From: Gammaproteobacteria bacterium
GTDB lineage: Bacteria; Pseudomonadota; Gammaproteobacteria; SZUA-229
Direction of reading: 5' to 3'
NCBI GenBank assembly: GCA_041589455.1
Contig: JBFHVQ010000002.1
Coordinates: forward strand, 9,120-73,119
Length of the DNA: 64,000 nucleotides
Numbering within the stretch: the first letter of the stretch is position 1; each line of letters begins with the position of its first letter. Positions 11,651-52,172 of this stretch are shown piece after piece. The notes below the pieces were generated by a model, which was not told where the DNA came from, made no database searches, and worked only from the letters and a program-made list of their open reading frames with translations. The translations under genes were made by a program, and so were the position numbers.

Positions 11651-11663
11651 AATTGTTTATTGG

Positions 11664-13013
11664 CTATTCGCTTTTATGGGTTAATATAGTGTCAACATCT
11701 TCCTCTATCATTTCAACCTTCTCAATTTTCTCAAATCTTGACGTTATCTTCCTGGCAGATGTATGTACCTCACTGACATCTTTATTTGCCTGTGATATAT
11801 GCTTAGCCAGATTATCCATGCGCATCTGAAATCGAGAAAAGTCTTTTGATAATGCAACCAGGTGCTCTTGTATCAAGTGCACCTGTTTTCGTGTTGCTGA
11901 ATCTTTCAAAACTGCGCGCGCTGTGGTTAGCACAGCCATTAATGTTGTAGGCGAAACCATCCAGACACGCGCTCGCTGAGACTCTTCTACAAGATCATAG
12001 TAGTGTGCATGTATTTCAGCAAATATTGCTTCTGCCGGTATAAACATCACCGCGCCGTCAGATGTCTCTCCGGGTATAATGTATTTTCCTGCAATATCAT
12101 TTACATGCTTTTTAATATCTTTTTTAAATTGTTTTTCAGCCGCCATACGCTCAATTTCAGACGCCTCAATATCCATCATCTTCTGATAGGACTCTAATGG
12201 AAATTTTGAATCGATTGCAATATCACCGCTTGGCTCTGGCAGAAACAGCATACAGTCTACCCGCGTGCTATTCGACAAGGTATATTGAAATGAAAAACTG
12301 TTTTCCGGCATTACATTACGCACCAGCGATGCCAGCTGCACCTCACCAAAGGCACCACGTGATCGCTTGTCGGCTAGTACCTCCTGGAGACTAACGACAT
12401 TACCTGATAGTTCAGTGATTTTCTTCTGCGCCTCATCGATCAGTGCCAATCGTTTTACTACATCAGCAAAGGTTGCCGTGGTTTTTTCAAAACCCTCATT
12501 AAGACGTTTATCTACCTGACCTGATATTTCTTTAAGGCGCAAATCAGTTGACTGAGTCAAGGCTTCAACTTTCTTACCGAGTGCCTCACCATTTCGAGAC
12601 AGTGCTTCCGTTACCTGATTTCGTACTTCAGACATGCCTAGTGTTAGACTATCCTGTTGTGTTTTCAATGCATCTAACTGACGCGCCTCAAATGACTCAC
12701 GATGGCGATTTAAACCAAGTTGTATAGATTCACTATTACTAGCCATTTTTTCCATAAGCTGACTAGTCAGTTCAGCGACTCTTCGTTCCTGGGAAGTCTG
12801 TAGATCATGCATCTTTTCAGACAACATGTTCTGAATTTCATTCAACTGTTGCGTTTGTTGCTGCCTGTCCTGTACCAACTGCTCCTGCAACACTTGTAAC
12901 AATTGACTCTTATAGAGTCTGAACTGACTACTCAGCCACCAGAACAGGGCGACAATCACCAGTGCTATCGCAATTGCAAATATCAGTAGTTGATTGTCCA
13001 AGTCTACATTCAT
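11664..13013 (-). CDS. rmuC: DNA recombination protein RmuC
   Basis: N-terminal TM, long coiled coil and a conserved C-terminal nuclease-like region (GAFGE...VDCMLFLP...IAIDSKFPL...VMFIPAE). Confidence 0.9.
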   Translation of the reverse strand: MNVDLDNQLLIFAIAIALVIVALFWWLSSQFRLYKSQLLQVLQEQLVQDRQQQTQQLNEIQNMLSEKMHDLQTSQERRVAELTSQLMEKMASNSESIQLGLNRHRESFEARQLDALKTQQDSLTLGMSEVRNQVTEALSRNGEALGKKVEALTQSTDLRLKEISGQVDKRLNEGFEKTTATFADVVKRLALIDEAQKKITELSGNVVSLQEVLADKRSRGAFGEVQLASLVRNVMPENSFSFQYTLSNSTRVDCMLFLPEPSGDIAIDSKFPLESYQKMMDIEASEIERMAAEKQFKKDIKKHVNDIAGKYIIPGETSDGAVMFIPAEAIFAEIHAHYYDLVEESQRARVWMVSPTTLMAVLTTARAVLKDSATRKQVHLIQEHLVALSKDFSRFQMRMDNLAKHISQANKDVSEVHTSARKITSRFEKIEKVEMIEEDVDTILTHKSE

Positions 13014-13148: not shown

Positions 13149-14015
13149 ATGCCAAATATTCTTCTCACCGGTGTCGCTACTCTGGACACCATTAATCAGG
13201 TAGCACACTACCCACCAGAGGATAGCGAAGTCAGGGCGTCAGTACAGCAACTACGCCTGGGGGGAAATGCGGCTAATTCGGCTGTTGTGCTTCAGCAACT
13301 CGGTGCGCATACTTTCCTTCTGGCAAATCGTGCCGATGACAATCAGGCCGACTTTATTTTCACACAACTGGAACAGCGCGGCATTAACACCGGCTTCTGT
13401 CCTGTTCAAATGGATAGCTGTACCCCGACATCTTATATCACCCTTAGCCAGAGTACTGGCTCACGTAGCATTGTACATTACCGTAAGCTCGATGAACTCA
13501 ACAGCAAAGACTTCAAAACACTCCCACTGGAGACTTTCGACTGGTTACATTTCGAAACGCGTGACTGTCATAATCTGTTATTGATGCTGCAACACGCCAG
13601 TCAATATGCAGCAACAATTTCTCTGGAACTTGAAAAACCACGAGAACACATAGATTCCGTGATTCCATTTGCTGATTTACTGTTAATCTCACGCCCATTT
13701 GCAGAAGCCCGTTACTTTCAGTCAGCGAAAGAGTGCTTACAGCATTTTTCACAACTCTTCCCAGATAAAACCATTAGCTGTACCTGGGGTGATGCAGGTG
13801 CCTGGATATATCATCAGAACAATATAATTCACCAGGCTGCATTTCCGGCAAGCCCACTAATTGAAAGCCTGGGCGCTGGTGACACCTATAATGCTGCAAT
13901 TATTTATGCACTGGCAAACATGCAACCGGTCAATGCCGCTATCAAATCCGCTTGCCAGCTTGCTGCGAAAAAATGCACACAAACTGGATTCGATAACTTA
14001 ACCTTAAAGACATAG
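13149..14015 (+). CDS. PfkB-family sugar kinase (ketohexokinase-like)
   Basis: GGNAANSA and GAGDTYNAA motifs. ATG 13149 is preferred over the TTG at 13116. Confidence 0.8.
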   Translation: MPNILLTGVATLDTINQVAHYPPEDSEVRASVQQLRLGGNAANSAVVLQQLGAHTFLLANRADDNQADFIFTQLEQRGINTGFCPVQMDSCTPTSYITLSQSTGSRSIVHYRKLDELNSKDFKTLPLETFDWLHFETRDCHNLLLMLQHASQYAATISLELEKPREHIDSVIPFADLLLISRPFAEARYFQSAKECLQHFSQLFPDKTISCTWGDAGAWIYHQNNIIHQAAFPASPLIESLGAGDTYNAAIIYALANMQPVNAAIKSACQLAAKKCTQTGFDNLTLKT

Positions 14016-20120: not shown

Positions 20121-21065
20121 TCAGGCCGTTTCACCAGCCATTTTATTAAATGCTATTCTACGCCTTAGCCAGCTACTTGCTATGGCTGCTGTTAAAATAC
20201 ACCACACTGCAAACAGAGCTCCCGGTAGCGCAGATTCTGCAGGAAAATGCTTTAACGCTAAAGCCACACCCATACCCGCATTTTGCATACCCAGTTCTAT
20301 CATTAATGTAATTCTATACAGCTTTTCGAATCCATATAAACCCGAAAGATACCAGCCAAGTAAATACCCCAGAATATTCACCAGCACCACACCCAGCATA
20401 ACTGACCAGACCATATCAGAAATACGCTGCTGATTTGCCGCAACGGCGTAACTACAGATTATGACAATGGATAAGGCCGCAATACCTGGTGCCAGATTTC
20501 TCGCACTCTCTAAGTAACGCCCCAACCATCTCTGAACCAGGAGTCCAAGCATTAATGGCAATAAGACTGTTTGTAGAATCGTCATCATTAGTGGCCAGAA
20601 TTCTACGGGTAAAATCGCCCCCCCTAGCACCTTCACCAGAAACGGCGTCAACAAAGGCGATAATAGTGTTGCTACTGTAGTCAGAGTAACCGAAAAGGCC
20701 ACTGCACCGCCCGCCAGAAAAACAATCACATTACTGGCCATAGCACCAGGCGCACAACCAACGATAATAAAACCAATCGCAATAGCTGGTGTAAAGCCCG
20801 GATATTGTGCCACCAGGTAAACCAATAATGGCATTACACTAAACTGACTCAGTACACCTAATGCTACTCGCCGCGGCTGAACGATTTCATTTTGTAGATC
20901 TCTGGCATTCAGCACCAGACCTAAAGCAAACATAGTGGCTGCAAAGAACCAGAGAAAATATCCCTTAAACACCAGAAAAACTGGGGGATAGAGATAAGCG
21001 ATTATGGCTCCCAGCAAAGTTAAAGCCGCAAGCTGACTGGCAATAAAGCTAAAAATTTTCTGCAT
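20121..21065 (-). CDS. bile acid:Na+ symporter (BASS) family transporter, second paralogue
   Basis: Same architecture and motifs as 14379-15284 (GCAPGAMASNV, ELGMQNAGMG). Confidence 0.85.
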   Translation of the reverse strand: MQKIFSFIASQLAALTLLGAIIAYLYPPVFLVFKGYFLWFFAATMFALGLVLNARDLQNEIVQPRRVALGVLSQFSVMPLLVYLVAQYPGFTPAIAIGFIIVGCAPGAMASNVIVFLAGGAVAFSVTLTTVATLLSPLLTPFLVKVLGGAILPVEFWPLMMTILQTVLLPLMLGLLVQRWLGRYLESARNLAPGIAALSIVIICSYAVAANQQRISDMVWSVMLGVVLVNILGYLLGWYLSGLYGFEKLYRITLMIELGMQNAGMGVALALKHFPAESALPGALFAVWCILTAAIASSWLRRRIAFNKMAGETA

Positions 21066-23531: not shown

Positions 23532-23933
23532 TTACACCTGATGCTCAGGCGGAATCACCACCTGCATTTCTGCTGATTTCCAGGCAGCAAGACCACCATT
23601 AATGTTTTTCACATTTTTAAAACCCATCTGCTTCAGCACCGATGCGGCCATTGCTGCACGTCCAGAGGTTGCACAAAAGGTTAGCCATTTTTTATCACGA
23701 TCCATCATGTGTGTATTTTTACCCGGGTACTGACGATCACAGGCCGCCTCAAGAATCCCTCTGGGTAAATTCAGCGCACCATCAATTGTCCCAGCATGAT
23801 ATTCAGCCGGCTCCCTGACATCCAGCACCTGATAACCTTCATCCAGCAGGCTAACCACTTCATTCACTTCGACTTCTTCAATTTGTGACTTTGCTGCTTT
23901 AACAAAGTCCATCAGTGTTTTTTCTTCACTCAT
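23532..23933 (-). CDS. single-domain rhodanese sulfurtransferase
   Basis: DVREPAEY...GAL and catalytic loop FCATSGRAA. The start is uncertain: ATG 23933 or the TTG at 23960, which overlaps the upstream stop. Confidence 0.85.
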   Translation of the reverse strand: MSEEKTLMDFVKAAKSQIEEVEVNEVVSLLDEGYQVLDVREPAEYHAGTIDGALNLPRGILEAACDRQYPGKNTHMMDRDKKWLTFCATSGRAAMAASVLKQMGFKNVKNINGGLAAWKSAEMQVVIPPEHQV

Positions 23934-23956
23934 ACCGCTTTTCTCTCGTTTCTCAT

Positions 23957-24379
23957 TCAATGCTTCAGCACAGACGACACCTTAACGGGCTCCTCAATCT
24001 GTGTAAATTCAAATTGTTGCTGTTCCATTATGTTGCCACCCTCATCGAGTACGGACACCTGCCATGCTCCCATCCAGTTCGATTGCATGTTTTTAGTAGA
24101 CCAGGTACGCCAACGTTGAGCGCCAATTTCAAATGACACCTCTGCCATTAATTTCCCATTATATTCCCATCTATGGGTAATAGTATGCCCTTTCAAGCCT
24201 CGTAACTCAGTAAAGTAGTACACTCGACTTAGCTCATTACTCACTTGCTGAAGGTTTGATACCGGTTCCTTATTAATAACACCCGTTGTAATTATGCTTC
24301 GTCTTACACCGGTTTCTGCCATCACCCAGGCAGGCAACAACCCTGCCAGTAACAGAATCCATACCATCTTTTGCTTCAT
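23957..24379 (-). CDS. secreted hypothetical protein (DUF2914-like)
   Basis: Signal peptide MKQKMVWILLLAGLLPAWVMA. The VYYFTEL...HRWEYNG pattern resembles DUF2914 from memory. Confidence 0.4.
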   Translation of the reverse strand: MKQKMVWILLLAGLLPAWVMAETGVRRSIITTGVINKEPVSNLQQVSNELSRVYYFTELRGLKGHTITHRWEYNGKLMAEVSFEIGAQRWRTWSTKNMQSNWMGAWQVSVLDEGGNIMEQQQFEFTQIEEPVKVSSVLKH

Positions 24380-24448
24380 TCTCCCCCCTTACCAAACTGC
24401 ATTTATTTACTATCTTTGATTTTTATATTTTTCAACATCAACAAGCTT

Positions 24449-24985
24449 TCAGTTATCCGTCAGATATTCGTCTTTCAGACCGACATAGTGTTGTGCAGAA
24501 TAACTTAAAAAATCTCTTTCTTTCTGGTTCAGCTCCCTAACCTGCCGTGCTGGTGAACCCAAATATAGATACCCTCCCTGAAGTACCTTACCCGGTGAAA
24601 CAACACTGCCTGCTCCCACCATAGTCCCTTCCTCAATCACTGCGCCATCCAGTATCACAGAGCCCATACCAATCAGGCATCGATCTTCTATTATGCACGC
24701 ATGTATCACCGCACTATGGCCAATAGTGACATCTGAACCAATGTGCAGGGCGTTACCCTCAGGACTCAACGGCCCTTTATGCGTCACATGCAAGACACTG
24801 CCATCCTGTATATTGGTGCGGTCACCAATGCGTATAATATTCACATCACCGCGGATAGCCACCATTGGCCAGACTGAACAATCCTCACCGATGACAACAT
24901 CACCAATAACCGCGGCAGCAATATCAACATATGTACGCTCACCGATAACAGGCATGATATTTTTGAAAGGGCGAATATGATTCAT
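24449..24985 (-). CDS. gamma-carbonic-anhydrase-family (YrdA-like) hexapeptide protein
   Basis: Collinear with E. coli YrdA (IRGDVN.I.IGDRTNIQDGSVLHVTH...GYLYLGSPA). Confidence 0.9.
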   Translation of the reverse strand: MNHIRPFKNIMPVIGERTYVDIAAAVIGDVVIGEDCSVWPMVAIRGDVNIIRIGDRTNIQDGSVLHVTHKGPLSPEGNALHIGSDVTIGHSAVIHACIIEDRCLIGMGSVILDGAVIEEGTMVGAGSVVSPGKVLQGGYLYLGSPARQVRELNQKERDFLSYSAQHYVGLKDEYLTDN

Positions 24986-25088: not shown

Positions 25089-25451
25089 TCACTCGGGCGA
25101 GTGATAGGACAAGCGATTCAGGATCTTTTCCCTAAGTGCCTGAGTGCTTTCAATCTGGTCTATTTCAGTCTTACTCATCCAGAGTTTAAAGTCATTTCCC
25201 TGTTGTTCATATATCGCAGGAAAGGGGCCTCTCAAGCCAGTTTCCTCGGCAAACTGATCACGATGCAAAAAACGGATTTCGCTATTCATTTGCTGAAGAA
25301 AGCTGGACCACTCATCACGCATAGTAAAGTAACCATGAGTGAGTTCGCACAAATGGCACTGATAAGTATCGGGTGAAACTATTTTATGGCCAATATCTGC
25401 CAATGTATTAAATACGCCACTATCTGCGTTATAGACAAACACCAGCTGCAT
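25089..25451 (-). CDS. hypothetical CxxC protein (possible thioredoxin-fold)
   Basis: AGGAG SD 6 nt before ATG 25451 and 11 nt after the ArsR stop. MQLVFVYNADSG...YQCHLCELTHG contains a CHLC motif. Confidence 0.5.
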   Translation of the reverse strand: MQLVFVYNADSGVFNTLADIGHKIVSPDTYQCHLCELTHGYFTMRDEWSSFLQQMNSEIRFLHRDQFAEETGLRGPFPAIYEQQGNDFKLWMSKTEIDQIESTQALREKILNRLSYHSPE

Positions 25452-25462
25452 TTTAGCTCCTG

Positions 25463-26122
25463 CTATTCTGTTGACGATTCGACAGGGTATCCTGCACTTT
25501 TCCATTCCGGAAAGCCTTCTTCAAGACGACTCGCAGTGAAACCCATTTTCCGCAATTGCTCCACTGCATCAAAGGAATACACACAGTAAGGCCCTCTGCA
25601 ATAAGCCACTACCTGACGCCCCGGGTCTATTTGCCTTAAACGCTCCTGCAGCTGATCCGGTGGAACATTAATCGCACCAGGCAGGTGCCCCGACGCAAAC
25701 TCATCTGCAGGACGAACATCTATCACCGTTACCTGGCCTTGCTCCACCTGCTTACAGAGCTCTTCGCGAGGTAGTGGTGGGCTCTGGTCTTTCTCACCCA
25801 GATAGGAGCCTGCTAACAGATTTACATCCGCCAGATGCCGCTCCGATACTACTCTAAGCATTCTTAGCAGCTCCACCACGTCATCACTGTTAATACGGTA
25901 AAAAACCTTTAGCCCTCGTTTATGGCTTTGTACCAGGCCCGCCTGACGGAGCTGCTGCAGGTGCTGAGAGGTATTGGCGACACTCAGGCCCGATAGCCCG
26001 GAAAGCTCTTCAACACTACGCTCTGCCTGAGCCAGGTAATCCAGTATCTGCAGACGGTTTGCATTACTAAGCGCCTTGCCTATGCGGGAGAACTGGCCAA
26101 ACAGCTCCTCTTTAAAACTCAT
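25463..26122 (-). CDS. ArsR/SmtB-family regulator fused to a C-terminal rhodanese domain
   Basis: Winged HTH (ALSNANRLQILDYL...SVANTSQHLQQLRQAGLV) with no Cys. The C-terminal rhodanese has a YCRGPYC loop. Confidence 0.88.
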   Translation of the reverse strand: MSFKEELFGQFSRIGKALSNANRLQILDYLAQAERSVEELSGLSGLSVANTSQHLQQLRQAGLVQSHKRGLKVFYRINSDDVVELLRMLRVVSERHLADVNLLAGSYLGEKDQSPPLPREELCKQVEQGQVTVIDVRPADEFASGHLPGAINVPPDQLQERLRQIDPGRQVVAYCRGPYCVYSFDAVEQLRKMGFTASRLEEGFPEWKSAGYPVESSTE

Positions 26123-26160
26123 TCATATCACCTCTAATAGATAGATTAGATTTTATGCTG

Positions 26161-26189
26161 TTGACTGATGTTTGACTATTTATTATTCT
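26161..26189 (+). promoter_or_regulatory. candidate sigma70 promoter of the hydroxylase-to-arsM operon
   Basis: TTGACT (26161-26166), 17-nt spacer, TATTCT (26184-26189). Confidence 0.4.
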
Positions 26190-26216
26190 ACTATTCAATT
26201 ATTCAATTGAATAGTA
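26189..26216. promoter_or_regulatory. 12-4-12 perfect inverted repeat, candidate ArsR-type operator
   Basis: TACTATTCAATT-attc-AATTGAATAGTA. It contains the 14-bp palindrome TATTCAATTGAATA and abuts the candidate -10 in the divergent intergenic region. Confidence 0.5.
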
Positions 26217-26257
26217 TATATTAAGCATATGTCCACCAGTTAACTCCCAGAGGCTCT

Positions 26258-27124
26258 ATGAACAGTATTGAAACCTTGATAATTGAAAATGAAGGCACCA
26301 TCAGACTTGCCGTCTTTATCGGTATGCTGGTTCTTATGGGGCTCTGGGAATGGCTAGCCCCCAGGCGTGCACCCAAATTATCCAAACTACTGCGATGGAG
26401 CCATAATCTGGGACTGGTTTTTCTCAACAGCCTGCTACTAAGGCTAATTTTCCCTGCTGCTGCTGTTGGCATGGCCAGCTTTACCAGTGAATACCAATGG
26501 GGGCTATTCAATACTGTAGATCTACCCTTTATCATCGAGATCATCGCTGCAGTGATTCTGCTTGACCTGATAATCTATCTACAACATGTGCTGGTACATG
26601 CCGTTCCTGTCCTGTGGCGGCTGCATCGAGTACATCATGCAGACCTTGATTATGATGTCACCACTGGCATCCGCTTTCACCCCATTGAAATCATTCTCTC
26701 CATGGTCATCAAATTTGCTGCCATTGCCGCTCTGGGCCCTGCGGTAGTTGCGGTGATTATTTTTGAAGTACTGCTGAACGGTATGGCGATGTTTAATCAC
26801 GGCAATATACAACTCCCGGAATCACTGGATAAACTACTTCGATTAATTATCGTGACTCCGGATATGCACCGCGTACATCACTCTGTTGAGAACGATGAAA
26901 CCAATAGCAATTTTGGATTCAACCTAAGCGTGTGGGATCGCATCTTTGGAACCTATCGCCAGCAGCCTCGTCTTAGCCATGAGACCATGCAAATAGGCAT
27001 TCATCACTTTACCGAAAGCTCACAGACCAATCAGCTACCCGGAATGTTAATGATCCCTTTTCAGGGGGACTCAACTGGCTATGCCATTAATCGCCGCAGC
27101 TGGAGCAAAGACGATGAAAAATAA
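26258..27124 (+). CDS. membrane fatty acid hydroxylase / sterol desaturase family di-iron enzyme
   Basis: His boxes HVLVH, HRVHH and HRVHH within a polytopic membrane protein. Confidence 0.85.
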   Translation: MNSIETLIIENEGTIRLAVFIGMLVLMGLWEWLAPRRAPKLSKLLRWSHNLGLVFLNSLLLRLIFPAAAVGMASFTSEYQWGLFNTVDLPFIIEIIAAVILLDLIIYLQHVLVHAVPVLWRLHRVHHADLDYDVTTGIRFHPIEIILSMVIKFAAIAALGPAVVAVIIFEVLLNGMAMFNHGNIQLPESLDKLLRLIIVTPDMHRVHHSVENDETNSNFGFNLSVWDRIFGTYRQQPRLSHETMQIGIHHFTESSQTNQLPGMLMIPFQGDSTGYAINRRSWSKDDEK

Positions 27125-28082
27125 AACCCTACGCTTACTCGCTTTCATTCTGTTAGCCTGCTTGGTCTCTCTGGCGCTGCTTAATCGTGACGCCCTGAAT
27201 ATCGACATGATAGAGCAAAATTTGCAACAGGCTGGCGCCTCTGCGCCGCTGATATTTATGTTGATTTACATTGCCAGCACCGTCCTGTTTTTACCCGGCT
27301 CTCTACTAACCCTGCTGGGCGGGGCATTATTTGGCCCTGTGCTGGGCACACTCTATAGCCTGAGTGCTGCAACACTGGGTGCAATAGCGGCCTTTATGAT
27401 TGCCCGCTATCTGGCATCAGACTGGGTCACTCGAAAATCTGCCGGTCGCCTTCAGCAGCTAATCCAGGGAGTAGAACAGGAAGGCTGGCGCTTTGTAGCC
27501 TTTACACGACTGGTCCCCCTGTTTCCATTTAACCTGCTCAACTATGCCCTCGGTCTCACCCGAATAAGCGTAACTCAATACAGTATTGCCACCTTTATTT
27601 TTATGCTGCCAGGAGCTGTGGCTTACACTTATCTGGGATATATGGGCAAAGAACTGGCTACAGGTGGTAGCGACCTTGTGCAAAAAATTATGCTTGCACT
27701 AGCACTTCTGGCAACAGTTGCCTTTATCCCTCGCCTGGTAAATCGCATGCGAAGCCGACCAGAGATGCTGGACATAACGGAACTAAAACAGCAAATGGAT
27801 GAACAACAAAAAATATTACTACTGGATGTGCGCACCACTGACGACTACCATGGCGAACAGGGACATATTGCCGGCTCCATGCTGATCCCGCTGGAACAGC
27901 TGCCACAACAAATTGAGCTCCTGGAAGCCTATCGTGATAAGCCGATTGTAACAATCTGTCGAACTGACAGACGCTCCTCTACAGCCGCCAAAATATTATC
28001 TAAAATGGGTTTTAATCATGTTAAGGTAGCACGCATGGGCATGACTGACTGGATCAAACAGCAATATCCCATCGAAAAATAA
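27114..28082 (+). CDS. TVP38/TMEM64 (DedA-superfamily) membrane protein fused to a C-terminal rhodanese domain
   Basis: LPGSLLTLLGGALFG and RLVPLFPFNLLNYALG TVP38 motifs. C-terminal LLLDVRT...ICRTDRRS rhodanese. GGAG SD, and ATG 27114 overlaps the upstream gene by 11 nt. Confidence 0.85.
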   Translation: MKNKTLRLLAFILLACLVSLALLNRDALNIDMIEQNLQQAGASAPLIFMLIYIASTVLFLPGSLLTLLGGALFGPVLGTLYSLSAATLGAIAAFMIARYLASDWVTRKSAGRLQQLIQGVEQEGWRFVAFTRLVPLFPFNLLNYALGLTRISVTQYSIATFIFMLPGAVAYTYLGYMGKELATGGSDLVQKIMLALALLATVAFIPRLVNRMRSRPEMLDITELKQQMDEQQKILLLDVRTTDDYHGEQGHIAGSMLIPLEQLPQQIELLEAYRDKPIVTICRTDRRSSTAAKILSKMGFNHVKVARMGMTDWIKQQYPIEK

Positions 28083-28098
28083 TTACAGATAAAGAACT

Positions 28099-29061
28099 AT
28101 GCACGATACCAAACCACTTTTATTGAAAACGGATTTTCCTGCTTTGCGTCGTAGCAATCTGGATACCCTGCAACTTAACCTTGGCTACACCTGCAACCAG
28201 AGTTGTCAGCATTGCCATGTCAACGCAGGCCCCAATAGAAAAGAACAGATGTCACTTGAAACACTCGAACAAATTCTGACATTTGCAAAGCTTCACTCAA
28301 TTAAGAAACTCGACCTAACCGGTGGTGCACCAGAACTCAACCCGCATTTCCGCTGGCTAATAGAACAGGCATCCAGGCACGGCATTCATGTAATTGATCG
28401 CTGCAATTTAACTATATTAACGGAACAGAACCAGCATGACCTGGCGGAATTTCTGGCACAATATCAGGTAGAAATTGTTGCTTCACTGCCCTGCTATAGT
28501 CAGGAGAATGTTGACAAACAAAGAGGCAAAGGTGTATTTGACCGTAGCATACAGGGACTTAAAATTTTAAATGCTCTGGGTTACGGAAAAAGCAATAATG
28601 ATTTGCAGTTAAATTTAATGTACAACCCCGGCGGTGCATTTTTACCCCCCTCGCAACAAACCCTTGAAGCAGATTATAAACAGAAACTGAAAAATGATTT
28701 TGAAATTGAATTCAATCAACTGCTCACACTAACAAATATGCCAATAATGCGTTTCGGAAGCAGCCTGCTTAGCAAAAATAAATTTGATGACTACATGCAA
28801 CTGCTTAAACAAGCTCACAATGATGACAACCTTGAAACCGTTATGTGTCGGAGCCTGATTAGCATTGACTGGCAAGGATATATCTATGACTGTGATTTCA
28901 ACCAGATGCTTGACATCCCAAGCCAGCTAAAAACCGAGTATAAAACACATATTTCAAAACTTAATTTTGAAACTTTACAAAATAATACTATCGCCATTGC
29001 AGACCATTGCTATGGCTGCACTGCTGGCAACGGATCAAGCTGTGGGGGTGCACTAAGTTAG
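28099..29061 (+). CDS. arsS: radical SAM / Cys-rich domain protein (ArsS-like; rSAM-selenodomain family)
   Basis: CNQSCQHC (CxxxCxxC, residues 32-39) and the C-terminal CYGCTAGNGSSCGG signature. Confidence 0.85.
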   Translation: MHDTKPLLLKTDFPALRRSNLDTLQLNLGYTCNQSCQHCHVNAGPNRKEQMSLETLEQILTFAKLHSIKKLDLTGGAPELNPHFRWLIEQASRHGIHVIDRCNLTILTEQNQHDLAEFLAQYQVEIVASLPCYSQENVDKQRGKGVFDRSIQGLKILNALGYGKSNNDLQLNLMYNPGGAFLPPSQQTLEADYKQKLKNDFEIEFNQLLTLTNMPIMRFGSSLLSKNKFDDYMQLLKQAHNDDNLETVMCRSLISIDWQGYIYDCDFNQMLDIPSQLKTEYKTHISKLNFETLQNNTIAIADHCYGCTAGNGSSCGGALS

Positions 29062-29063
29062 CT

Positions 29064-29768
29064 ATGAAACCCTCACGCATATCAATCATCATACCTTGTC
29101 TTAACGAAGCCAGTTACATTCTTGACACCCTTAAACCTTTACAGGCGCTACGCAGAAGAGGTCATGAGATAATTCTGGTAGATGCGCAAAGCGCAGACAA
29201 CACAGTCGAACTATCTCGCCAACTAGTTGATCTAGTAATAACCTCAGCACCAGGCAGAGCCAGACAAATGAATCATGGCGCACAATATGCCACAGGTGAT
29301 GTCTTATGCTTTATACATGCAGACACAGTTTGCCCAGATCACATTGATCAGTTAATTAGCAACACCCTTTGTCAGTCAAAAAAAACATGGGGGCGCTTTG
29401 ATGTGCAGCTCAGCGGCTCCTTCTGGATATTTAGAATCATTGAATGGATGATGAATAAACGCTCCTGCCTTACAGCTATAGCAACCGGTGACCAGGGTAT
29501 ATTTATCTGCAGGAATATATTCCATAAAATTTCAGGATTCGCTGACATTTCACTGATGGAAGATATCGAAATCTGTAAGCGATTGCGAAAAATTTCACGC
29601 CCTATCTGCGTCAACAAAGGACATTTAATCACCTCAAGTCGACGCTGGGAACAACAGGGCATTCTACGCACTATGTTTTTAATGTGGAGTTTACGCCTAG
29701 GTTATTTTATGGGCTTACCCACAAACACGCTCGCCAGCAAATACCGGACACATGTCTCAGAAAAATAA
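29064..29768 (+). CDS. family-2 glycosyltransferase (rSAM/selenodomain-associated transferase 2-like)
   Basis: ISIIIPCLNE...VDAQSADNT...FIHADT GT-A motifs. Starts 2 nt after the arsS stop. Confidence 0.82.
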   Translation: MKPSRISIIIPCLNEASYILDTLKPLQALRRRGHEIILVDAQSADNTVELSRQLVDLVITSAPGRARQMNHGAQYATGDVLCFIHADTVCPDHIDQLISNTLCQSKKTWGRFDVQLSGSFWIFRIIEWMMNKRSCLTAIATGDQGIFICRNIFHKISGFADISLMEDIEICKRLRKISRPICVNKGHLITSSRRWEQQGILRTMFLMWSLRLGYFMGLPTNTLASKYRTHVSEK

Positions 29769-30384
29769 ACAACTAATCGTTTTTGCAAAATCACCGATTT
29801 CAGGCAGTTGCAAAACAAGACTGATACCCCTACTTGGTGAAAAAGCGACAACCGATCTTTACAAAAAACTTTCTACGCATTGCCTTAACCAGATCAAAGA
29901 AATTAGAAACATTGATATATCATTACAGGTATTTCCTGACACATCACATGATTTTATTCAAAAGCTCAACACACAGTTCAATACAACTCTAAAACCACAA
30001 ACTGGCAATAATCTTGGTGAAAGAATGCATCATGGGATACACTACTCATTAATAAAATATAGCCAGTGCGTACTTATTGGCACAGACTGCCCGGAAATTA
30101 ATTCAGCATATATTGAACGCGCTTTTCATGCACTAGAATCTACAGACATTGTTCTTGGACCCGCCAATGATGGTGGCTATGTCCTGATAGGCGCAAATAA
30201 AATACAACCTGAATTATTTCACAACATTGAGTGGAGCACTGAAAGCGTGCTAAAACAACAAATCAAGAACTGTGAAAACTTAAATTACAGCTATCAACTA
30301 TTACCCGCATTATGGGACCTGGATTTACCTCAGGATTACATCCGGCACCAGAACCGACTTAAGCAACTCTCTATCTTAGAATAA
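29752..30384 (+). CDS. DUF2064 nucleotidyl-transferase-like protein (rSAM/selenodomain-associated transferase 1-like)
   Basis: LIVFAKSPISGSCKTRL N-terminus and GPANDGGYVLIG. Overlaps the upstream gene by 17 nt. Confidence 0.8.
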   Translation: MSQKNKQLIVFAKSPISGSCKTRLIPLLGEKATTDLYKKLSTHCLNQIKEIRNIDISLQVFPDTSHDFIQKLNTQFNTTLKPQTGNNLGERMHHGIHYSLIKYSQCVLIGTDCPEINSAYIERAFHALESTDIVLGPANDGGYVLIGANKIQPELFHNIEWSTESVLKQQIKNCENLNYSYQLLPALWDLDLPQDYIRHQNRLKQLSILE

Positions 30385-30399
30385 ATATTGAGGCCAATT

Positions 30400-31203
30400 A
30401 TGGATCAACTTGAAGCAGATAAAATACGAAATCAGGTAAGAGACTCTTACAGCAAGGTTGCTGAAGCTGACAACAACGGCGACTGCTGCGGTGTCGCCTC
30501 CAGTTGCTGCGGCGTATCTGATGAACAACAAATCAATCAACTCATCTCAACACGACTCGGTTATAGTGAAGAAGATATACGCAATACACCTGATGGTGCA
30601 GACATGGGCCTTGGCTGCGGCAACCCAAAGGCTATCGCGGAACTAAAAACTGGGGAAACAGTCATCGATCTGGGAAGCGGTGGTGGCTTCGACGCCTTTC
30701 TTGCCGCCAATGAAGTGGGTGATACAGGCAAGGTTATTGGTATTGATATGACACCAGAAATGCTCAGTAAAGCTCGCGCAAATGCAGAAAAAGGTCAATA
30801 TAAACAGGTGGAATTCCGTCTTGGCGAAATAGAACATATGCCTGTTGCTGACAATTATGCAGACGTCATTATTTCTAATTGCGTTATTAATCTGTCACCC
30901 AATAAACAACGTGTATTTAATGAGGCTTATCGCATATTAAAAACTGGTGGCCGTCTGGCGATTTCTGATGTTGTTTGCAGCACAAAATTACCAGATGATA
31001 TTCGAGACAATGTACAGCTTTACTCTGCCTGCGTTAGTGGCGCCTCAAGTATAAAAGAAATCGAGACGATGCTTAACTCCTCTGGATTCACCGACATCTC
31101 CATCACAGCTAAAGATGATAGTCGTGAGTTTATCAAAGATTGGGCGCCCGGCAGCAATATTGAGAATTATGTTTTATCCGCATACATTCAGGCAAGAAAA
31201 TAA
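30400..31203 (+). CDS. arsM: arsenite S-adenosylmethionine methyltransferase
   Basis: VIDLGSGGGFD SAM motif plus the conserved Cys contexts CCGV..CCGV, GLGCGNP, SNCVINL and SACVSGA. GAGG SD before ATG 30400. Confidence 0.88.
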   Translation: MDQLEADKIRNQVRDSYSKVAEADNNGDCCGVASSCCGVSDEQQINQLISTRLGYSEEDIRNTPDGADMGLGCGNPKAIAELKTGETVIDLGSGGGFDAFLAANEVGDTGKVIGIDMTPEMLSKARANAEKGQYKQVEFRLGEIEHMPVADNYADVIISNCVINLSPNKQRVFNEAYRILKTGGRLAISDVVCSTKLPDDIRDNVQLYSACVSGASSIKEIETMLNSSGFTDISITAKDDSREFIKDWAPGSNIENYVLSAYIQARK

Positions 31204-31215
31204 TCATTATACTAA

Positions 31216-33198
31216 TCATTTATTATCTTCTGGCTTAACCGGTAAAATCAGGGAAAACATTGCGCCTTTGCCTTTTCCTTCGCTGTGAACTTTAATATCA
31301 CCATTCAATTCTTTTGCCATTAATGCGCTATGGTGCAAACCATAGCCATGCCCGCCTTTTCTCTTTTTGTAGCCAAACTCAAAAAGACGGGTCATAGTTT
31401 CATCATCTATACCAACACCATTATCTTTAACTGAAAACTCCAAATCTTTTCCATACTGTTTTATACCTAATACAATATTTCTATTATCCACATCATTATT
31501 CATAAGCGCATATTTTGCATTACTAATAAAATTAACCAGAACCTGTATGACTTTATGCTTATCTACTGTCAACTCTTCATTAACTTCATACTCATAAGTC
31601 AGTGTAACTCGATTATTATTGAGACTGGATATGTTTATCTTTACTGCATCATCAAACAACTGACTTGCCAATATGGTTTCAACAATACCCATGCCTCCCG
31701 CATACGCCTGCTGCATTGAAATAATAGTTTTTATATGATCAATATTATCTCCAAGACAATCTAGCTCTTTGATCTGATTCTTCTGATCCACTTCGATCTG
31801 ACTAGCAAGCTTTTCAATATAGGGTATTATGAATTTTCCTTTTTCATCATTTTCTATAAAATTACAAAGATCTGATTTATTCTCATTCAACAGGTCTGAT
31901 ACCTTGCTCAGACTCAGCACCTTGCTATTTCTTATTTTTTCTTTTAGCACTGATGTCGATACATTAATACTATTTAAAACATTTCCAACATTATGCAGCA
32001 CGCCACTAGCAACTTCAGCCATACCCGCGCTTCTTGCAACGGTCGCTATTTTAGAATTCAAATCCTTCAATTCTTCTGTTCTTTCATTAACTTTAATTTC
32101 CAGACCTTCATTTAGTTCTTTTAACGTTTTCTGAAAAACTTCACGTTCTGTCACATCACGAATAACAACCTGAATCAACTCTTTACCTCTCAAGTCGATA
32201 GCGGTTATTTCCACATCCACTGATATCTCTACGTCGTAAATATTAGAAAAGAACCAATGATACCTTTTTTTAACCCCTACTTTCGCCTGCTTGATTGCTT
32301 CACTTATAGGAATCGAGTGTGATTCCTTCTCATCAATCCTGAAACGATTAACAAAATCAGAATCTATATCACCTAAATCTTCGATATTATTCACCGAAAA
32401 CATGGCTAATGCATTTTCATTTGCATCAATAATCTGATTATTTTCGAGCACTAGCACCGAATCCATACTTCCTTCAATTAGCGCTTTAAACTTCATCCCT
32501 TCATTTTCAATATGCCATGCTTGCTGTGATATTCTGCGTAAAATATACAACGAGCTAACAAATATCAGCACAACCACCACCACACTTAACAAAGTGACCG
32601 TTCTTGACGCAGCCTGCTTAGACAACCTTGACTGCTCAACAATTTTATCATTTTTCTTTTTTTGTAGTTCCAACATACGATCTACAATATCAAAAACCTG
32701 AGTCTGGTATTCGAGTGCCAGTTCTATCAACTCTAATGCTTGCTGTCTATTCCCCGCTATAACATTTTCATAAATATCATATTGAACAGCAACGGCATTT
32801 ATCGAAATATCTCGTTGCTCATCCAGCATTTTCATTTCGTCCTGATCGAGTTCGAGTGCAATATATTTTTCACGAGCCTGTAAAAAAGCAGTTCCTTGCT
32901 CTCTGAATTTTATCCACTCTTCGTCAACAAGAAATTCATCTTCGACCAGCAGTGTCATCATTAGCCTGAGATTTCTTTCCCTGGCGGATATTCTCATATC
33001 ATATAATAAACCTGTCTTTACATACGAGGCTTTAACCAACTCATCAAGACTCTGGCTTAATGACCTCAATTCATTGAGCGAGATAATACTCATCAAAATG
33101 ATTAACGCACAGGTTACTAACAGACCTGATATCAGTGCATTTCTGATATTTTTGATGGCTGGATAGGCTGATGAAAAATGTGAATCGTGAACCGACAT
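31216..33198 (-). CDS. orphan sensor histidine kinase (TM - helical sensor - TM - PAS - HK)
   Basis: Two TM segments flank a helical periplasmic domain. PAS domain, H-box GVLHNVGNVLNS, and HATPase (DNGVGI, GGHGYGL). No response regulator is adjacent. Confidence 0.88.
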   Translation of the reverse strand: MSVHDSHFSSAYPAIKNIRNALISGLLVTCALIILMSIISLNELRSLSQSLDELVKASYVKTGLLYDMRISARERNLRLMMTLLVEDEFLVDEEWIKFREQGTAFLQAREKYIALELDQDEMKMLDEQRDISINAVAVQYDIYENVIAGNRQQALELIELALEYQTQVFDIVDRMLELQKKKNDKIVEQSRLSKQAASRTVTLLSVVVVVLIFVSSLYILRRISQQAWHIENEGMKFKALIEGSMDSVLVLENNQIIDANENALAMFSVNNIEDLGDIDSDFVNRFRIDEKESHSIPISEAIKQAKVGVKKRYHWFFSNIYDVEISVDVEITAIDLRGKELIQVVIRDVTEREVFQKTLKELNEGLEIKVNERTEELKDLNSKIATVARSAGMAEVASGVLHNVGNVLNSINVSTSVLKEKIRNSKVLSLSKVSDLLNENKSDLCNFIENDEKGKFIIPYIEKLASQIEVDQKNQIKELDCLGDNIDHIKTIISMQQAYAGGMGIVETILASQLFDDAVKINISSLNNNRVTLTYEYEVNEELTVDKHKVIQVLVNFISNAKYALMNNDVDNRNIVLGIKQYGKDLEFSVKDNGVGIDDETMTRLFEFGYKKRKGGHGYGLHHSALMAKELNGDIKVHSEGKGKGAMFSLILPVKPEDNK

Positions 33199-33388: not shown

Positions 33389-34744
33389 CTAACGCATCGT
33401 GACCAGCTCTTCAGCGCTCGTTGGGTGTATCGCAACCGTATCATCAAAGTCTTTTTTGGTCGCCCCCATTCTCATGGCAACAGCGAAGCCCTGCAGCATT
33501 TCATCACAACCCGGGCCAATAATATGACAACCAACCACTTTCTCCTGAGCCCCCAGACACACCAGCTTCATCGCGGTCGGCACTTCATGGCTTGTCATCG
33601 CGTTATACATGGCGGTAAAGCGTGTTTGATACACTTTTACCGCATCCCCATGCTCTTTCCTGGCTTCTTCTTCTGTCAGACCAACCGTGCCAATCGGTGG
33701 ATGACTAAACACAACCGTTGAGATCAGATTGTAATCCAGATGACGATCGCTCTGATTATTGTATAAGCGATCAGCAAGGCGCCTACCAGCAGCGATTGCC
33801 ACCGGTGTTAACGGCTCACGACCGGTTACATCACCAAGCGAAAATATATTAGACACATTGGTATTCTGGAAAGTGTCACAGGGGATAAAACCGGCCTCAT
33901 CTCGCTCCAGCCCTGCCGCATCAAGGTTCATACCTTGGGTATTTGGGTGACGGCCTATCGCCCATATCAGCACATCATAGCCTGTATTTTTATTCCCTTT
34001 ATCATCACAAAGTGTCAGGCTGCCATCTTCTTCCTTGATCACTTCGGTAATCTGCGTCTGGGCAACGATTTCGATACCCTGATCCATCATTTCTTCGAGC
34101 AGGGTTTCTCGTAACATATGATCAAATGTACGCAGTAAATGCTTCTTTCTTAAGTACATATTGACATCACTTCCCAGGGCTTTCAGCACACCAGCAACTT
34201 CAACGGCGATATACCCGGAACCCACTATTGCGACCTTTTTAGGACATTCCGTTAATTCAAAAAAACCATCTGATGTCATACCATGCTCAGCACCCGGAAT
34301 CTCTGGAACCGTCGGCGTTGTACCCGGCGAGACCACAATGTGCTTTGCGGTGTATTTTTTGCCATCCACATCAAGCGTATTCGCATCCACAAACGAGGCA
34401 AAGCCCTGTAGCTCATCGATGTTCGAGTCTGCCAGGTAATTGTGATACCAGTTGTTAATACCTGATATATAATTTTCTCGCTTGGTCACCAGATGATTCC
34501 AGTCGAAACCTTTATTTTCTATATCAAAGCCATAATCTCTGGCATCGTCCAGGGCATGCGCCAGATTAGCGCCAAACCACATCACTTTCTTTGGCACACA
34601 GCCCACATTCACACAGGTACCGCCTATTTTACCCATTTCTACTACTGCACATTTAGCACCATATGTCGCTGCACGCTCAGCCACTGAAAGCCCGCCGCTA
34701 CCTGCACCAATTGCGATTAAGTCATAATCATATTTTTTTGCCAT
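33389..34744 (-). CDS. gor: glutathione-disulfide reductase
   Basis: [12 protein letters not shown], redox-active [13 protein letters not shown] and C-terminal HPTSAEE. ATG 34744 (MAKKYDYD) is preferred over the long ORF start. Confidence 0.92.
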
Positions 34745-34791
34745 GATAAACCCTGTAGTGAAATCTCGAGGTCGGGTAATATACCAGCACA

Positions 34792-35730
34792 ATGATCAAC
34801 GGAACACCCAATCTTAATATGTTGTTATTCAGTACGCTTAAAAAACTCAGCTCATCCAGCCAGTATCAGCACATCATTGACCGGCTTGAGCAATACAGTT
34901 TATTGATACGCCTGGATCGCCCGGTAGGTATCTTCCTGTTATTGTGGCCGACTCTCTGGGCACTCTGGATTGCAGCTAAAGGCTGGCCAGACCCTCTGGT
35001 CCTGTTTGTTTTCGTCAGCGGTGTCTTTCTGATGCGATCAGCCGGCTGCGCCATCAATGATTTTGCCGACCGTAAGATCGACCCTCATGTTGCCAGAACT
35101 AAGGATCGCCCTCTGGCCGCAGGGCGCATTACCAGCAGGGAAGCCCTTGCCGTATTCGCCGGCCTCTCCATTACCGCCTTTTTACTGGTTCTCTTGATGA
35201 ATAGACTGACCATCTATATGAGCTTTATCGGACTGCTACTAGCGGCCAGCTACCCCTTCATGAAGCGTTTCCACTATATGCCACAGGTTCACCTTGGGGC
35301 TGCCTTTGGCTGGGCCGCTCCTATGGCATTTACTGCACAGGCCAATGAAATTACTCAGGTTACCTGGCTTATATTTATGGCAACCGTCCTCTGGGCTACA
35401 GCTTATGACACCATGTATGCAATGGCTGATCGTGAAGACGATTTGAAAATTGGTGTGAAATCTACCGCCATTCTTTTTGGGGATGCAGATAAACTGATCA
35501 TCGGCCTGCTTCAGGCATTACTAATTCTGGATCTAATACTAATTGGTCGTCATTCACAGCTAGGGCTTTACTATTATCTTGGATTAGGACTTGCCAGCGC
35601 CTTTGCTGTTTACCAGCAATACCTGATTAAAGACCGAAACCCTCAACTGTGCTTCAAGGCATTTTTAAATAATAACTGGTTCGGAGTCAGTGTATTTTTT
35701 GGCATTTTCGTTGACTTCTGGGTACACTAG
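34792..35730 (+). CDS. ubiA: 4-hydroxybenzoate polyprenyltransferase
   Basis: [30 protein letters not shown] and [13 protein letters not shown] motifs. The start could be ATG 34819. Confidence 0.92.
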
Positions 35731-42103: not shown

Positions 42104-43252
42104 TCAGGAAAACAGATTAATCAGGTCATTCAGGAATAGATACCCCTGTTCTGATGCACACAGAACACCATCGTTATGCACCATTAAACCGCTTTCTATT
42201 GCATCTTCACAACGAGACTCAATAAACTCTCGAGGCAAGCCCGTGTGCTGCTCAAATAATGCATAGCTAAACCCCTGCTTCAAACGCAACGCATTGAGCA
42301 TAAATTCAAAAACGATTTGCTGCGGCTCAAGCACTTCACGGCCTGAGGTTTTCTCTGTCGCAGCCGCCTGCATATAATCTGCGGGCTGGCGCCGTTGCCA
42401 GTAACGGCAGACCTCACCATTATCACTGAGACTCAGCTTGCCGTGAGCCCCCGCCCCTAAGGCGAGATAATCACCAAACTGCCAGTAGTTGAGATTATGC
42501 TGACAATATTGCCCATTTCGCGCATAAGCCGACACTTCATACTGCTCAAAGCCATTAGCCGCCAGTAGCGCCTGCCCCTGTGTCTGTAGTTCCCATAGCT
42601 GGTCATCATCCGGGGTTACTGGCGGTTGTGTATAAAACAGGGTGTTCGGCTCAATGGTCAACTGGTACCAGGACAGATGCTGTGGCGATAGCTCGATTGC
42701 CTTTCGCAGGTCATCCAGCCCCTGCTCAACACTCTGTTCTGGCAAGCCAAACATAAGGTCAAGATTAATATTTTCAAAGCCGGCACGTCGCGCCACCTCA
42801 ACCGCTCGCAGCGCCTCATCACCATTATGAATACGCCCCAGTGACTGCAATTTTTCATTGTCAAAGCTCTGGACACCAATTGAAAGACGGTTGATTCCAG
42901 CTTCATAAAAGCCATTGAATTTTTCCTGCTCGACCGTTCCAGGATTTGCCTCCATGGTAATTTCCATAGTCGGCAGACAGTTCAAATGGCTTCTTATAAA
43001 ACGAATAATGCGCTGCAGGCCATCCGCCGAAAACAGGCTGGGGGTCCCTCCTCCTATAAACACCGAAACGATGCGTCGACCCCAGATCAGTGGCAATTGC
43101 TGCTCCAGATCTGCCTGCAGCGCATCGATATACGCCTGCTCAGGCAAGGTCTCAAAGGTGTGTGAATTAAAATCACAGTAGGGACATTTCTTAACGCACC
43201 AGGGAATATGTAGATATAATGCGAGGGGTGGCAATGTTGTGAATTCAGGCAT
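42104..43252 (-). CDS. hemW: radical SAM heme chaperone HemW
   Basis: LYLHIPWCVKKCPYCDFNS, GGGTPS and the HemN-like C-domain. Confidence 0.92.
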   Translation of the reverse strand: MPEFTTLPPLALYLHIPWCVKKCPYCDFNSHTFETLPEQAYIDALQADLEQQLPLIWGRRIVSVFIGGGTPSLFSADGLQRIIRFIRSHLNCLPTMEITMEANPGTVEQEKFNGFYEAGINRLSIGVQSFDNEKLQSLGRIHNGDEALRAVEVARRAGFENINLDLMFGLPEQSVEQGLDDLRKAIELSPQHLSWYQLTIEPNTLFYTQPPVTPDDDQLWELQTQGQALLAANGFEQYEVSAYARNGQYCQHNLNYWQFGDYLALGAGAHGKLSLSDNGEVCRYWQRRQPADYMQAAATEKTSGREVLEPQQIVFEFMLNALRLKQGFSYALFEQHTGLPREFIESRCEDAIESGLMVHNDGVLCASEQGYLFLNDLINLFS

Positions 43253-52166: not shown

Positions 52167-52172
52167 ATTGCT

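Follow-up and report, generated by a model that had tools for sequence, protein, structure and literature searches.

A candidate composite locus combining an arsenosugar-type gene cassette with a separable membrane module and a rhodanese-fused ArsR regulator in a gammaproteobacterium

We analyzed a gene cluster located at positions 25089-31203 of a 64,000-nucleotide stretch of contig JBFHVQ010000002.1 (assembly GCA_041589455.1), which derives from a Gammaproteobacteria bacterium of the SZUA-229 lineage and is referred to as the window. With an estimated probability of roughly 55%, this cluster represents a composite co-regulated locus in which an arsenosugar-type cassette is joined to a separable membrane module and to a gene pair for a regulator and a CxxC protein. 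The cassette comprises arsS, two transferase genes and arsM, while the membrane module consists of a hydroxylase gene and a gene for a VTT-rhodanese fusion protein. The four-gene core is already known at the database level and is biochemically unfinished. Families were assigned by NCBIfam hidden Markov models (HMMs) with their curated cut-offs, complemented by Pfam domains.

The original prediction was built on seven open reading frames (ORFs), all of which were confirmed at their coordinates, and the sizes of the gene junctions were likewise reproduced. The regulator gene (25463-26122, reverse strand) is divergent from six co-directional genes on the forward strand (26258-31203). Within this set, the hydroxylase and VTT-rhodanese genes overlap by 11 nt (27114 versus 27124), and the following junctions are gaps of 16 nt before 28099, 2 nt before 29064 and 15 nt before 30400 as well as an overlap of 17 nt at 29752. 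The ATG starts at 27114, 29064 and 30400 fit the HMM envelopes and tblastn alignments of homologues better than the longest ORFs do. The start of the feature, formerly placed at 25463, was corrected to 25089, because a co-directional gene for a 120-amino-acid protein following the regulator belongs to the unit.

The four core families (28099-31203) had been identified rightly, each scoring above its curated NCBIfam cut-off. ArsS (28099-29061, forward strand) is a radical S-adenosylmethionine (SAM) protein that matches the TIGR04167 equivalog model with 470.7 bits (cut-off 300) over residues 16-319 of 320 and contains the Pfam domains Radical_SAM and DUF3641 (192 bits). A motif check recovered both the CxxxCxxC described at residues 32-39 (C32, C36 and C39) and the C-terminal cysteine signature, with C304, C307 and C315 lying within HCYGCTAGNGSSCGG (CxxC...C). 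ArsM (30400-31203, forward strand), an As(III) S-adenosylmethionine methyltransferase, obtained 356.5 bits with PRK11873 (NF008823; cut-off 263) and fell short of the cyanobacterial model NF038099 'AsSugarArsM' (108.4 bits versus 400), which places it in the short general type. Its cysteines are found at residues 29/30/36/37, 73 (GLGCGNP), 161 (SNCVINL) and 211 (YSACVSGA). All four conserved contexts attributed to this protein were thus present in the expected surroundings, and we take them to correspond to C44, C72, C174 and C224 of CmArsM.

By analogy with the Synechocystis enzyme, the only ArsS of known activity, ArsS of the window would add the 5'-deoxyadenosyl group of SAM to dimethylarsenite, the ArsM and ArsS steps being established for the cyanobacterial orthologues. 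Work by Xue and colleagues, in Environ Sci Technol in 2019, is said to have demonstrated the ArsM and ArsS reactions in vivo. PMC12159101 presents these two enzymes as performing the first steps of arsenosugar synthesis and refers to adenosylation of arsenic by ArsS in vitro (Cheng et al. 2021, cited in PMC12159101). ArsS homologues number in the thousands, and those with 66-75% identity derive mostly from marine or hydrothermal metagenomes and from gammaproteobacterial metagenome-assembled genomes. The NCBIfam text designates TIGR04167 a '(seleno)protein' and lists selenoprotein variants of ArsM.

The two genes directly downstream of arsS encode a GT2 glycosyltransferase of GT-A fold (29064-29768, forward strand; TIGR04283, 260.6 bits, cut-off 182) and a DUF2064 protein with a CofC/MobA-like nucleotide-diphospho-sugar-transferase fold (29752-30384, forward strand; TIGR04282, 207.6 bits, cut-off 134; weak match to CofC). 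Their identification in the original prediction as TIGRFAM 'rSAM/selenodomain-associated transferases' agrees with the JGI names. JGI still lists the GT2 protein as 'rSAM/selenodomain-associated transferase 2', and NCBI uses 'arsenosugar biosynthesis' in the names of TIGR04167, TIGR04282 and TIGR04283. For TIGR04283 and TIGR04282 this role is a curator's inference expressed in the name, and the roles suggested for them here are derived from fold and co-occurrence. A literature search found no paper describing the chemistry of either family, and a search combining arsenosugar, radical SAM and glycosyltransferase gave nothing relevant. The AlphaFold2 model of the GT2 protein (predicted local distance difference test, pLDDT, 94) produced generic GT-A matches in Foldseek, namely WrtF, heparosan synthase, PcManGT and ArnC (E 1e-9 to 1e-12). 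No transmembrane (TM) segment was predicted in the GT2 protein, and a PDB sequence search with it gave no match. The sole PDB relative of the DUF2064 protein is 3cgx, described as 'putative nucleotide-diphospho-sugar transferase' (E 7e-17).

How regularly these genes accompany arsS was seen in an ArsS-anchored census of at least 80 GTDB loci with 57-64% identity, 45 of which had at least 4 kb upstream and 7 kb downstream and were counted. Gene calling in related loci used a filter based on GC content at third codon positions (GC3), because longest-ORF calls gave antisense ORFs in high-GC loci. DUF2064 genes were present in 34 of the 45 loci and TIGR04283-like GT2 genes in 32. A VTT protein of the COG0398 DedA type, mostly fused to a disulfide oxidoreductase, was encoded in 23. 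The hydroxylase was found in 2 loci, the ArsR-rhodanese regulator in 1, and any ArsM-like gene in 5. The TIGR04167/TIGR04282/TIGR04283 trio, all adjacent in the window, was the commonest neighbourhood. In contrast to these three, the hydroxylase, the VTT part and the 120-amino-acid protein match no NCBIfam model at cut-off, and the regulator matches a generic ArsR/SmtB model only.

Further recurrent neighbours of arsS were an extracytoplasmic function (ECF) sigma/anti-sigma pair, DUF3047, DUF547, an SSF-like permease, a Rieske oxygenase and S-methyl-5'-thioadenosine phosphorylase (MTAP). An equivalog of the last was encoded beside arsS in 5 loci (e.g. L005:8954-9847, reverse strand; TIGR01694, 320 bits) and is a plausible enzyme for the removal of adenine from the ArsS product. 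ArsM-like genes located beside arsS elsewhere usually belong to a longer subtype of 357-396 amino acids, which stays below every curated ArsM cut-off; the best score of the one in L010 was 361 versus 500 for NF040538.

The closest known counterparts of the cassette are ArsM and ArsS of Synechocystis sp. PCC 6803. The window shares with them an equivalog-level ArsS, including the CxxxCxxC motif and the cysteine-rich C-terminus, and the ArsM cysteine contexts. It differs in that the host, judged by its relatives, belongs to a non-photosynthetic gammaproteobacterial lineage and in that ArsM is not of the NF038099 type. Moreover, the window unites these genes in one set with those for TIGR04283 and TIGR04282, with the membrane module and with a regulator of their own.

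Both proteins of the membrane module had been recognized correctly, as confirmed by Pfam. The first gene (26258-27124, forward strand) encodes a putative membrane di-iron enzyme of the fatty-acid hydroxylase/sterol desaturase superfamily (PF04116, 100.4 bits, cut-off 31). It has four predicted hydrophobic segments and the His boxes HVLVH (110), HRVHH (123) and HRVHH (204), which are conserved in 77 orthologues. Four hydrophobic segments and three His boxes are features shared with OlsE and bacterial FA_hydroxylases. OlsE was also the best NCBIfam match, and orthology to it was rejected, since the score of 89.3 bits is far under the equivalog cut-off of 475. A PDB sequence search with the hydroxylase gave no match. 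The second gene (27114-28082, forward strand) encodes 322 amino acids with an N-terminal VTT_dom (PF09335, 90.3 bits) and a C-terminal Rhodanese domain (64 bits), whose active-site Cys282 (CRTDRRS) was invariant in 30 of 30 sequences. Lysine and arginine are abundant in the linker that follows the last TM segment, and the rhodanese domain probably faces the cytoplasm.

In BLASTP comparisons the VTT domain was 34% identical to E. coli YdjX (E 2e-35) and matched YdjZ with 2e-17 and YqjA with 1.5e-4, while the match to YqaA was non-significant. By these sequence scores it is assigned to COG0398 (TVP38/YdjX) rather than to the YqjA (COG0586) or YqaA (COG1238) subfamily, being far closer to YdjX than to YqjA of the undecaprenyl phosphate (UndP) flippase type. 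According to PMC10127716, COG0398 members are regarded as putative flippases of phospholipids and are most often fused to a pyridine-nucleotide disulfide oxidoreductase. PMC10193950 describes PetA as a phosphatidylethanolamine flippase of the COG0398 DedA/TVP38 group. Such VTT-pyridine-nucleotide disulfide oxidoreductase fusions (about 718 amino acids) were encoded in about 30 ArsS loci, and the fusion of VTT to a thiol-redox domain in the window parallels them. The partner in the window is a rhodanese instead, and PMC10127716 reports rhodanese fusions for COG0586, not for COG0398. In many Burkholderiales and other Proteobacteria, VTT fusions whose oxidoreductase part resembles MerA or glutathione reductase are encoded between arsS and the GT2 gene (L060:7821-9977, L009, L013, L026, L030 and L036), and DUF547 and DUF3047 genes share clusters with VTT-oxidoreductase fusions.

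In E. coli K-12 (1833401-1836063, locus L165), ydjX and ydjZ form a string with ydjY (ferredoxin-type) and ynjA (AhpD-like). The gene for the rhodanese YnjE follows further downstream. The VTT-rhodanese association of the window may have a distant parallel in this string.

The separable nature of the membrane pair is indicated by two close relatives of the locus, L001 (ArsS 73%) and L002 (ArsS 70%). Both occupy the same site as the cluster in the window, marked by aroE, a rhodanese, DUF2914, a hexapeptide/gamma-carbonic-anhydrase protein, a protein of 133-137 amino acids and the regulator. In both, the regulator directly faces arsS, the hydroxylase and VTT-rhodanese genes are absent, and arsS-GT2-DUF2064-arsM is intact. 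By comparison, the metagenome contigs L085 and L092 have the exact six-gene order and architecture of the window. In a neighbour-joining tree of ArsS the window pairs with L001 and L092 with L002; thus, presence and absence of the pair are interleaved inside a single ArsS clade. The intergenic region of L002 still contains a scar corresponding to hydroxylase residues 7-44 (58% identity, E 8e-9) and perhaps also the last 14 residues of the VTT-rhodanese protein. Since this scar lies beside an intact cassette, the pair was lost by deletion in L002 and was not needed for keeping the arsS cassette. The regulator of L002 is itself broken into two frames beside intact arsS-arsM (decay series L002:7201-7800, also L003).

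The converse view was obtained from a hydroxylase-anchored census of 80 metagenome loci with 54-70% identity, in which the denominators are the loci with enough flank. The regulator was located divergently upstream in 37 of 62 loci, and a VTT gene followed immediately downstream in 44 of 63 and carried a rhodanese domain in 34 of 56. ArsS was present in 11 of 36. These hydroxylase-linked ArsS sequences are spread over at least 6 clades and at least 5 gene orders. In L086 and L100, which have no arsS, a 66-67% identical ArsM adjoins the regulator. The neighbourhood census proposed earlier for the extra genes therefore gave a positive answer, as the linkage recurs in other genomes. The linkage of the pair to arsS/arsM is recurrent and far above a plausible background, yet facultative. 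Judged by these sequence comparisons, the pair appears to be a mobile module under the same regulator that is dispensable for the arsS cassette. Base composition was dropped as a sign of an inserted pair, because the difference in GC3 (0.48-0.49 for the hydroxylase/VTT pair, 0.34-0.41 for arsS-arsM; mean GC of the window 0.44) is too small and its direction ambiguous, and synteny and the deletion scar were used instead.

What would join the two gene groups is the regulator, which had been described as a rhodanese-fused ArsR protein. Pfam confirmed HTH_5 (residues 22-66) followed by Rhodanese (120-209), and the winged-helix protein matches the ArsR/SmtB model NF033788 with 79.5 bits (cut-off 55). 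It is proposed to act as repressor and sensor. PF00581 scores were 67.3 bits for the regulator and 63.7 bits for the VTT fusion. Cys175 and Cys180, which lie in the active-site loop of the rhodanese domain (AYCRGPxC), were invariant in 35 of 35 orthologues, in which the HTH domain has no conserved cysteine. The loop of the window protein reads CRGPYC and has the catalytic cysteine and the six-residue length of a rhodanese. Loops of this kind are typed as sulfurtransferase-length by comparison with RhdA and Cdc25. The family is large, with 407 clusters at 50% identity and E<=1e-30; most of those listed are 210-240 amino acids long.

The perfect 12-4-12 inverted repeat reported between the divergent genes was found at the place described, TACTATTCAATT-ATTC-AATTGAATAGTA, with arms at 26189-26200 and 26205-26216, and is conserved. 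When up to 2 mismatches are allowed, its 22-bp core, TATTCAA-N8-TTGAATA (26192-26213), precedes the regulator start by no more than 250 nt in 42 of 52 related loci, mostly at a distance of 28-33 nt. Elsewhere, 16 further matches were found in 2.1 Mb, several of them just upstream of the hydroxylase gene on contigs that end before the regulator. Such a recurrence at one position, in 42 of 52 loci against these 16 other matches, puts the repeat beyond chance. It is kept where the regulator directly faces arsS (L001, L002 and L006). In L118, a second perfect core (13404-13425) is located 15 nt upstream of a TauE-like gene heading an operon for a TauE-like protein, a multihaem cytochrome, a methyltransferase, ArsS, GT2, DUF2064 and the 120-amino-acid CxxC protein. 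Together these observations are good comparative evidence that the palindrome (26189-26216) is an operator controlling both kinds of cargo, DNA binding being deduced from conservation of the site. A sigma-70-like promoter match for the six-gene set, TTGACT-17-TATTCT (26161-26189, forward strand; 9 of 12 consensus matches), is listed on account of its -10 hexamer, at which the operator begins; such sites are as frequent around the locus as expected by chance. Overall, promoter-like and terminator-like matches around the locus were no commoner than in shuffled sequence.

Two-cysteine persulfide sensors of the ArsR type are established, with BigR, SqrR and YgaV as examples, and in E. coli ygaVP the regulator YgaV is paired with the membrane rhodanese YgaP. 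The regulator of the window shares with these systems the winged helix, a conserved cysteine pair, an association with rhodanese, TauE-like and sulfur-relay genes, and a palindromic operator at a divergent promoter. In contrast to them, its cysteine pair is located in the loop of the fused rhodanese instead of the DNA-binding domain, and the genes under its presumed control are arsS/arsM and hydroxylase/VTT rather than those for a persulfide dioxygenase or sulfide:quinone oxidoreductase (SQR). Its match to the BigR model NF040642 was weak (36.7 bits versus 155), with the cysteine pair outside the ArsR fold, and the cysteines of the classical As(III)-sensing ArsR type (R773, CVC-type) are absent. 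As its invariant cysteines sit in the rhodanese loop only, it belongs neither to the classical As(III)-sensing ArsR proteins nor to the BigR/SqrR group, although it may function in the manner of the latter. A literature search for ArsR together with a rhodanese domain gave nothing relevant. On comparative sequence grounds, an ArsR-rhodanese sensor family with a defined 22-bp operator appears to be a new and previously unreported finding.

The second new comparative finding, absent from the original prediction, is a candidate companion of arsS clusters encoded at 25089-25451 (reverse strand), 11 nt downstream of the regulator stop and co-directional with it. The true length of this CxxC protein is 120 amino acids, as M19 is the first residue in its homologues and in the NCBI-derived entry P0121. 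None of its 707 homologues has a Pfam match, and there is no NCBIfam family; CxxC and NADSG/HK motifs are invariant among them. Elsewhere the gene is placed beside the regulator, after DUF2064, between DUF2064 and ArsM, or before ArsS, and these varied placements indicate that it tracks arsS and not the hydroxylase. The AlphaFold2 model has a pLDDT of 76, and its Foldseek matches to thioredoxin and protein disulfide isomerase domains are weak (E ~0.01, TM ~0.45), so that the protein is only tentatively called thioredoxin-like. A PDB sequence search with it gave no match.

From these components the following course of events can be proposed. The ArsR-rhodanese repressor would bind the 22-bp palindrome at -10/+1 of the divergent promoter and let go of the DNA when Cys175/Cys180 are modified. 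The modifying agent may be sulfane sulfur (persulfide or polysulfide) or a metalloid that binds thiols, for example As(III) or MAs(III). ArsM would then methylate As(III) to dimethylarsenite, and ArsS would attach the 5'-deoxyadenosyl group of SAM to arsenic, yielding 5'-deoxy-5'-dimethylarsinoyl-adenosine, from which a housekeeping nucleosidase or phosphorylase could remove adenine. Judging by fold and co-occurrence, the TIGR04282 and TIGR04283 proteins may convert the arseno-ribose to an activated form and pass it on to an acceptor. For the membrane pair, it is conceivable with low certainty that lipids are modified and that lipids or solutes are translocated in a process coupled to sulfur transfer, and at the same low certainty the pair might condition the membrane or handle the product under joint sulfide and arsenic stress. 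The CxxC protein probably supplies thiol-disulfide redox power, for example to reset the sensor or to keep arsenicals trivalent.

The original prediction went further and regarded the six genes as one pathway leading to a membrane arsenolipid. In such a series, the GT2 enzyme would place the arseno-ribose on a lipid, the di-iron enzyme would tailor it and the VTT protein would flip it. This agrees with the overlapping or nearly abutting genes, the identical six-gene order in L085 and L092, the VTT genes in 23 of 45 ArsS loci together with the link between COG0398 DedA proteins and phospholipid flipping, and the hydroxylase-arsS linkage, which recurs across several gene orders in at least 6 clades of ArsS. 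Arsenosugar phospholipids also are cyanobacterial products, according to PMC12159101 (Xue et al. 2014, reference 58 therein). The recurring linkage is supported, an obligatory single pathway is not. The hydroxylase was present in only 2 of 45 ArsS loci, about two thirds of the hydroxylase/VTT-rhodanese loci have no arsS within reach, and L001 and L002 keep the core without the pair, L002 by deletion. Furthermore, the GT2 protein has no predicted TM segment and structural neighbours of both acceptor kinds. Tight operon packing is no proof of a single pathway, and we regard this integrated arsenolipid route as rather unlikely. Still less probable is an account in which the regulon answers reactive sulfur or selenium species, the rhodaneses, CxxC protein and VTT protein traffic sulfane sulfur or selenium, and ArsS, ArsM and the transferases act on the chalcogen or make thio-arsenicals. 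For the regulator and the membrane module, though, a role centred on sulfur or selenium is a serious contender in view of their other neighbours. Three rhodanese domains in or beside the unit, including a stand-alone one at 23532-23960, point in this direction, as do rhodanese loops of sulfurtransferase length (CRTDRRS, CRGPxC), the established persulfide sensors among ArsR-type proteins, the DsrE-like, TauE/SafE, cysteine desulfurase and disulfide reductase genes recurring by the pair, and the NCBIfam '(seleno)protein' label of TIGR04167 with its selenoprotein ArsM variants. However, ArsM fully matches the arsenite methyltransferase model with all four cysteine contexts, ArsS has an equivalog-level match to a characterized arsenic enzyme, ArsM and no sulfur gene is found beside the regulator in L086 and L100, and neither selenophosphate synthetase nor a selenocysteine-decoding gene was seen among the ORFs scanned.

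Plain detoxification, in which arsenic would be methylated and conjugated for disposal and the VTT protein would export products that have no role in the membrane, is very unlikely in our estimate. Classical resistance genes are missing from its support, since arsC, acr3/arsB and arsH were not found among the ORFs scanned. The original prediction had excluded these as well as arsA and arsD from the entire 64 kb; this holds for the 30 further ORFs scanned with NCBIfam, about 25 ORFs being outside the scan. In addition, the regulator lacks the classical As(III)-binding cysteines of ArsR, and the di-iron hydroxylase would be left without a role. In favour of disposal, ArsR-family repressors are the usual control of ars operons, ArsM is a recognized detoxification enzyme (PMC12159101), and DedA proteins have been tied to transport phenotypes for selenite (Ledgham et al. 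2005, cited in PMC10127716) and indium (PMC8679861).

The reading as a composite locus also has to face several opposing observations. The structural neighbours of the GT2 protein include enzymes with soluble and with lipid acceptors, and the type of acceptor was not separated by them. An ArsM-like gene adjoins ArsS in only 5 of the 45 well-flanked proteobacterial loci; hence, the arsenic assignment of proteobacterial TIGR04167 depends on cyanobacterial orthology and the NCBI equivalog label. Where the pair occurs without arsS, its companions are DsrE-like, TauE/SafE, class-V aminotransferase (cysteine-desulfurase type) and disulfide reductase genes, a set equally compatible with a function centred on sulfur and with one centred on arsenic. 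Other companions at such loci were a small methyltransferase and multihaem cytochromes. The thioredoxin fold of the CxxC protein is tentative (E ~0.01), with the CxxC loop modelled at low confidence. Finally, the evidence consists of sequence comparison and predicted structures, from which transcription, DNA binding, ligand and product are inferred. An extended proposal holds that the cluster, or its fuller relatives, supplies the genes so far missing for the steps that follow ArsS and that Gammaproteobacteria from marine and sediment habitats produce an arsenosugar lipid associated with the membrane by means of the transferase pair, hydroxylase tailoring and DedA translocation, controlled by a new class of two-cysteine rhodanese ArsR that senses sulfane sulfur and arsenic. 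We consider this proposal doubtful. A literature search found no papers linking arsenosugar genes to rhodanese, DedA or hydroxylase proteins.

The flanks of the composite locus are of housekeeping character and include aroE (by synteny), gamma carbonic anhydrase, glutathione reductase and ubiA. A block at 23532-24985 (reverse strand) encodes the stand-alone rhodanese (142 amino acids), DUF2914 and the gamma-carbonic-anhydrase-like hexapeptide protein, and is syntenic in L001, L002, L085 and L092. On the other side, a gene resembling PAS/histidine kinases (31216-33198, reverse strand; 660 amino acids) converges on arsM with 12 nt between the stops; it has the lowest GC of the neighbourhood (0.36), and L001, L002 and L092 lack it at this position. 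The gene at 33389-34792, which resembles glutathione reductase, initially grouped with the VTT-fused disulfide reductases and was rejected as part of the unit, since it encodes a bona fide Gor (658 bits) and its position beside the cluster is not conserved. An SBF-type transporter (20121-21065, 314 amino acids) was rejected as a hidden Acr3, being BASS/PanS-like and below the cut-offs. The operon at 7306-13013 (reverse strand) suggests an efflux pump of the resistance-nodulation-division (RND) type by its ORF sizes alone (1041, 408 and 449 amino acids). Unrelated housekeeping genes of the window are bioB, bioF, bioA, hemW and hemN, located at 51129-53324 (forward), 60497-61804 (reverse), 42104-43252 (reverse) and 53442-54824 (forward). 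An Rfam scan gave no match to riboswitch or sRNA families across the whole window.

An important outcome of this study is a set of new leads, comprising the ArsR-rhodanese family with its operator, the CxxC family tied to arsS, and the natural 'knock-outs' L001 and L002, which mark the membrane pair as accessory. Furthermore, among the non-enzymatic partners of arsS in Proteobacteria a DedA/VTT protein was the most frequent, an association that was previously unreported. Complex arsenic species in marine food webs are mainly arsenosugars and arsenolipids, and of their synthesis only the ArsM and ArsS steps have been demonstrated. Because the genes for these two enzymes are packed with two uncharacterized transferases under one putative operator, the later steps would be directly testable by heterologous expression.

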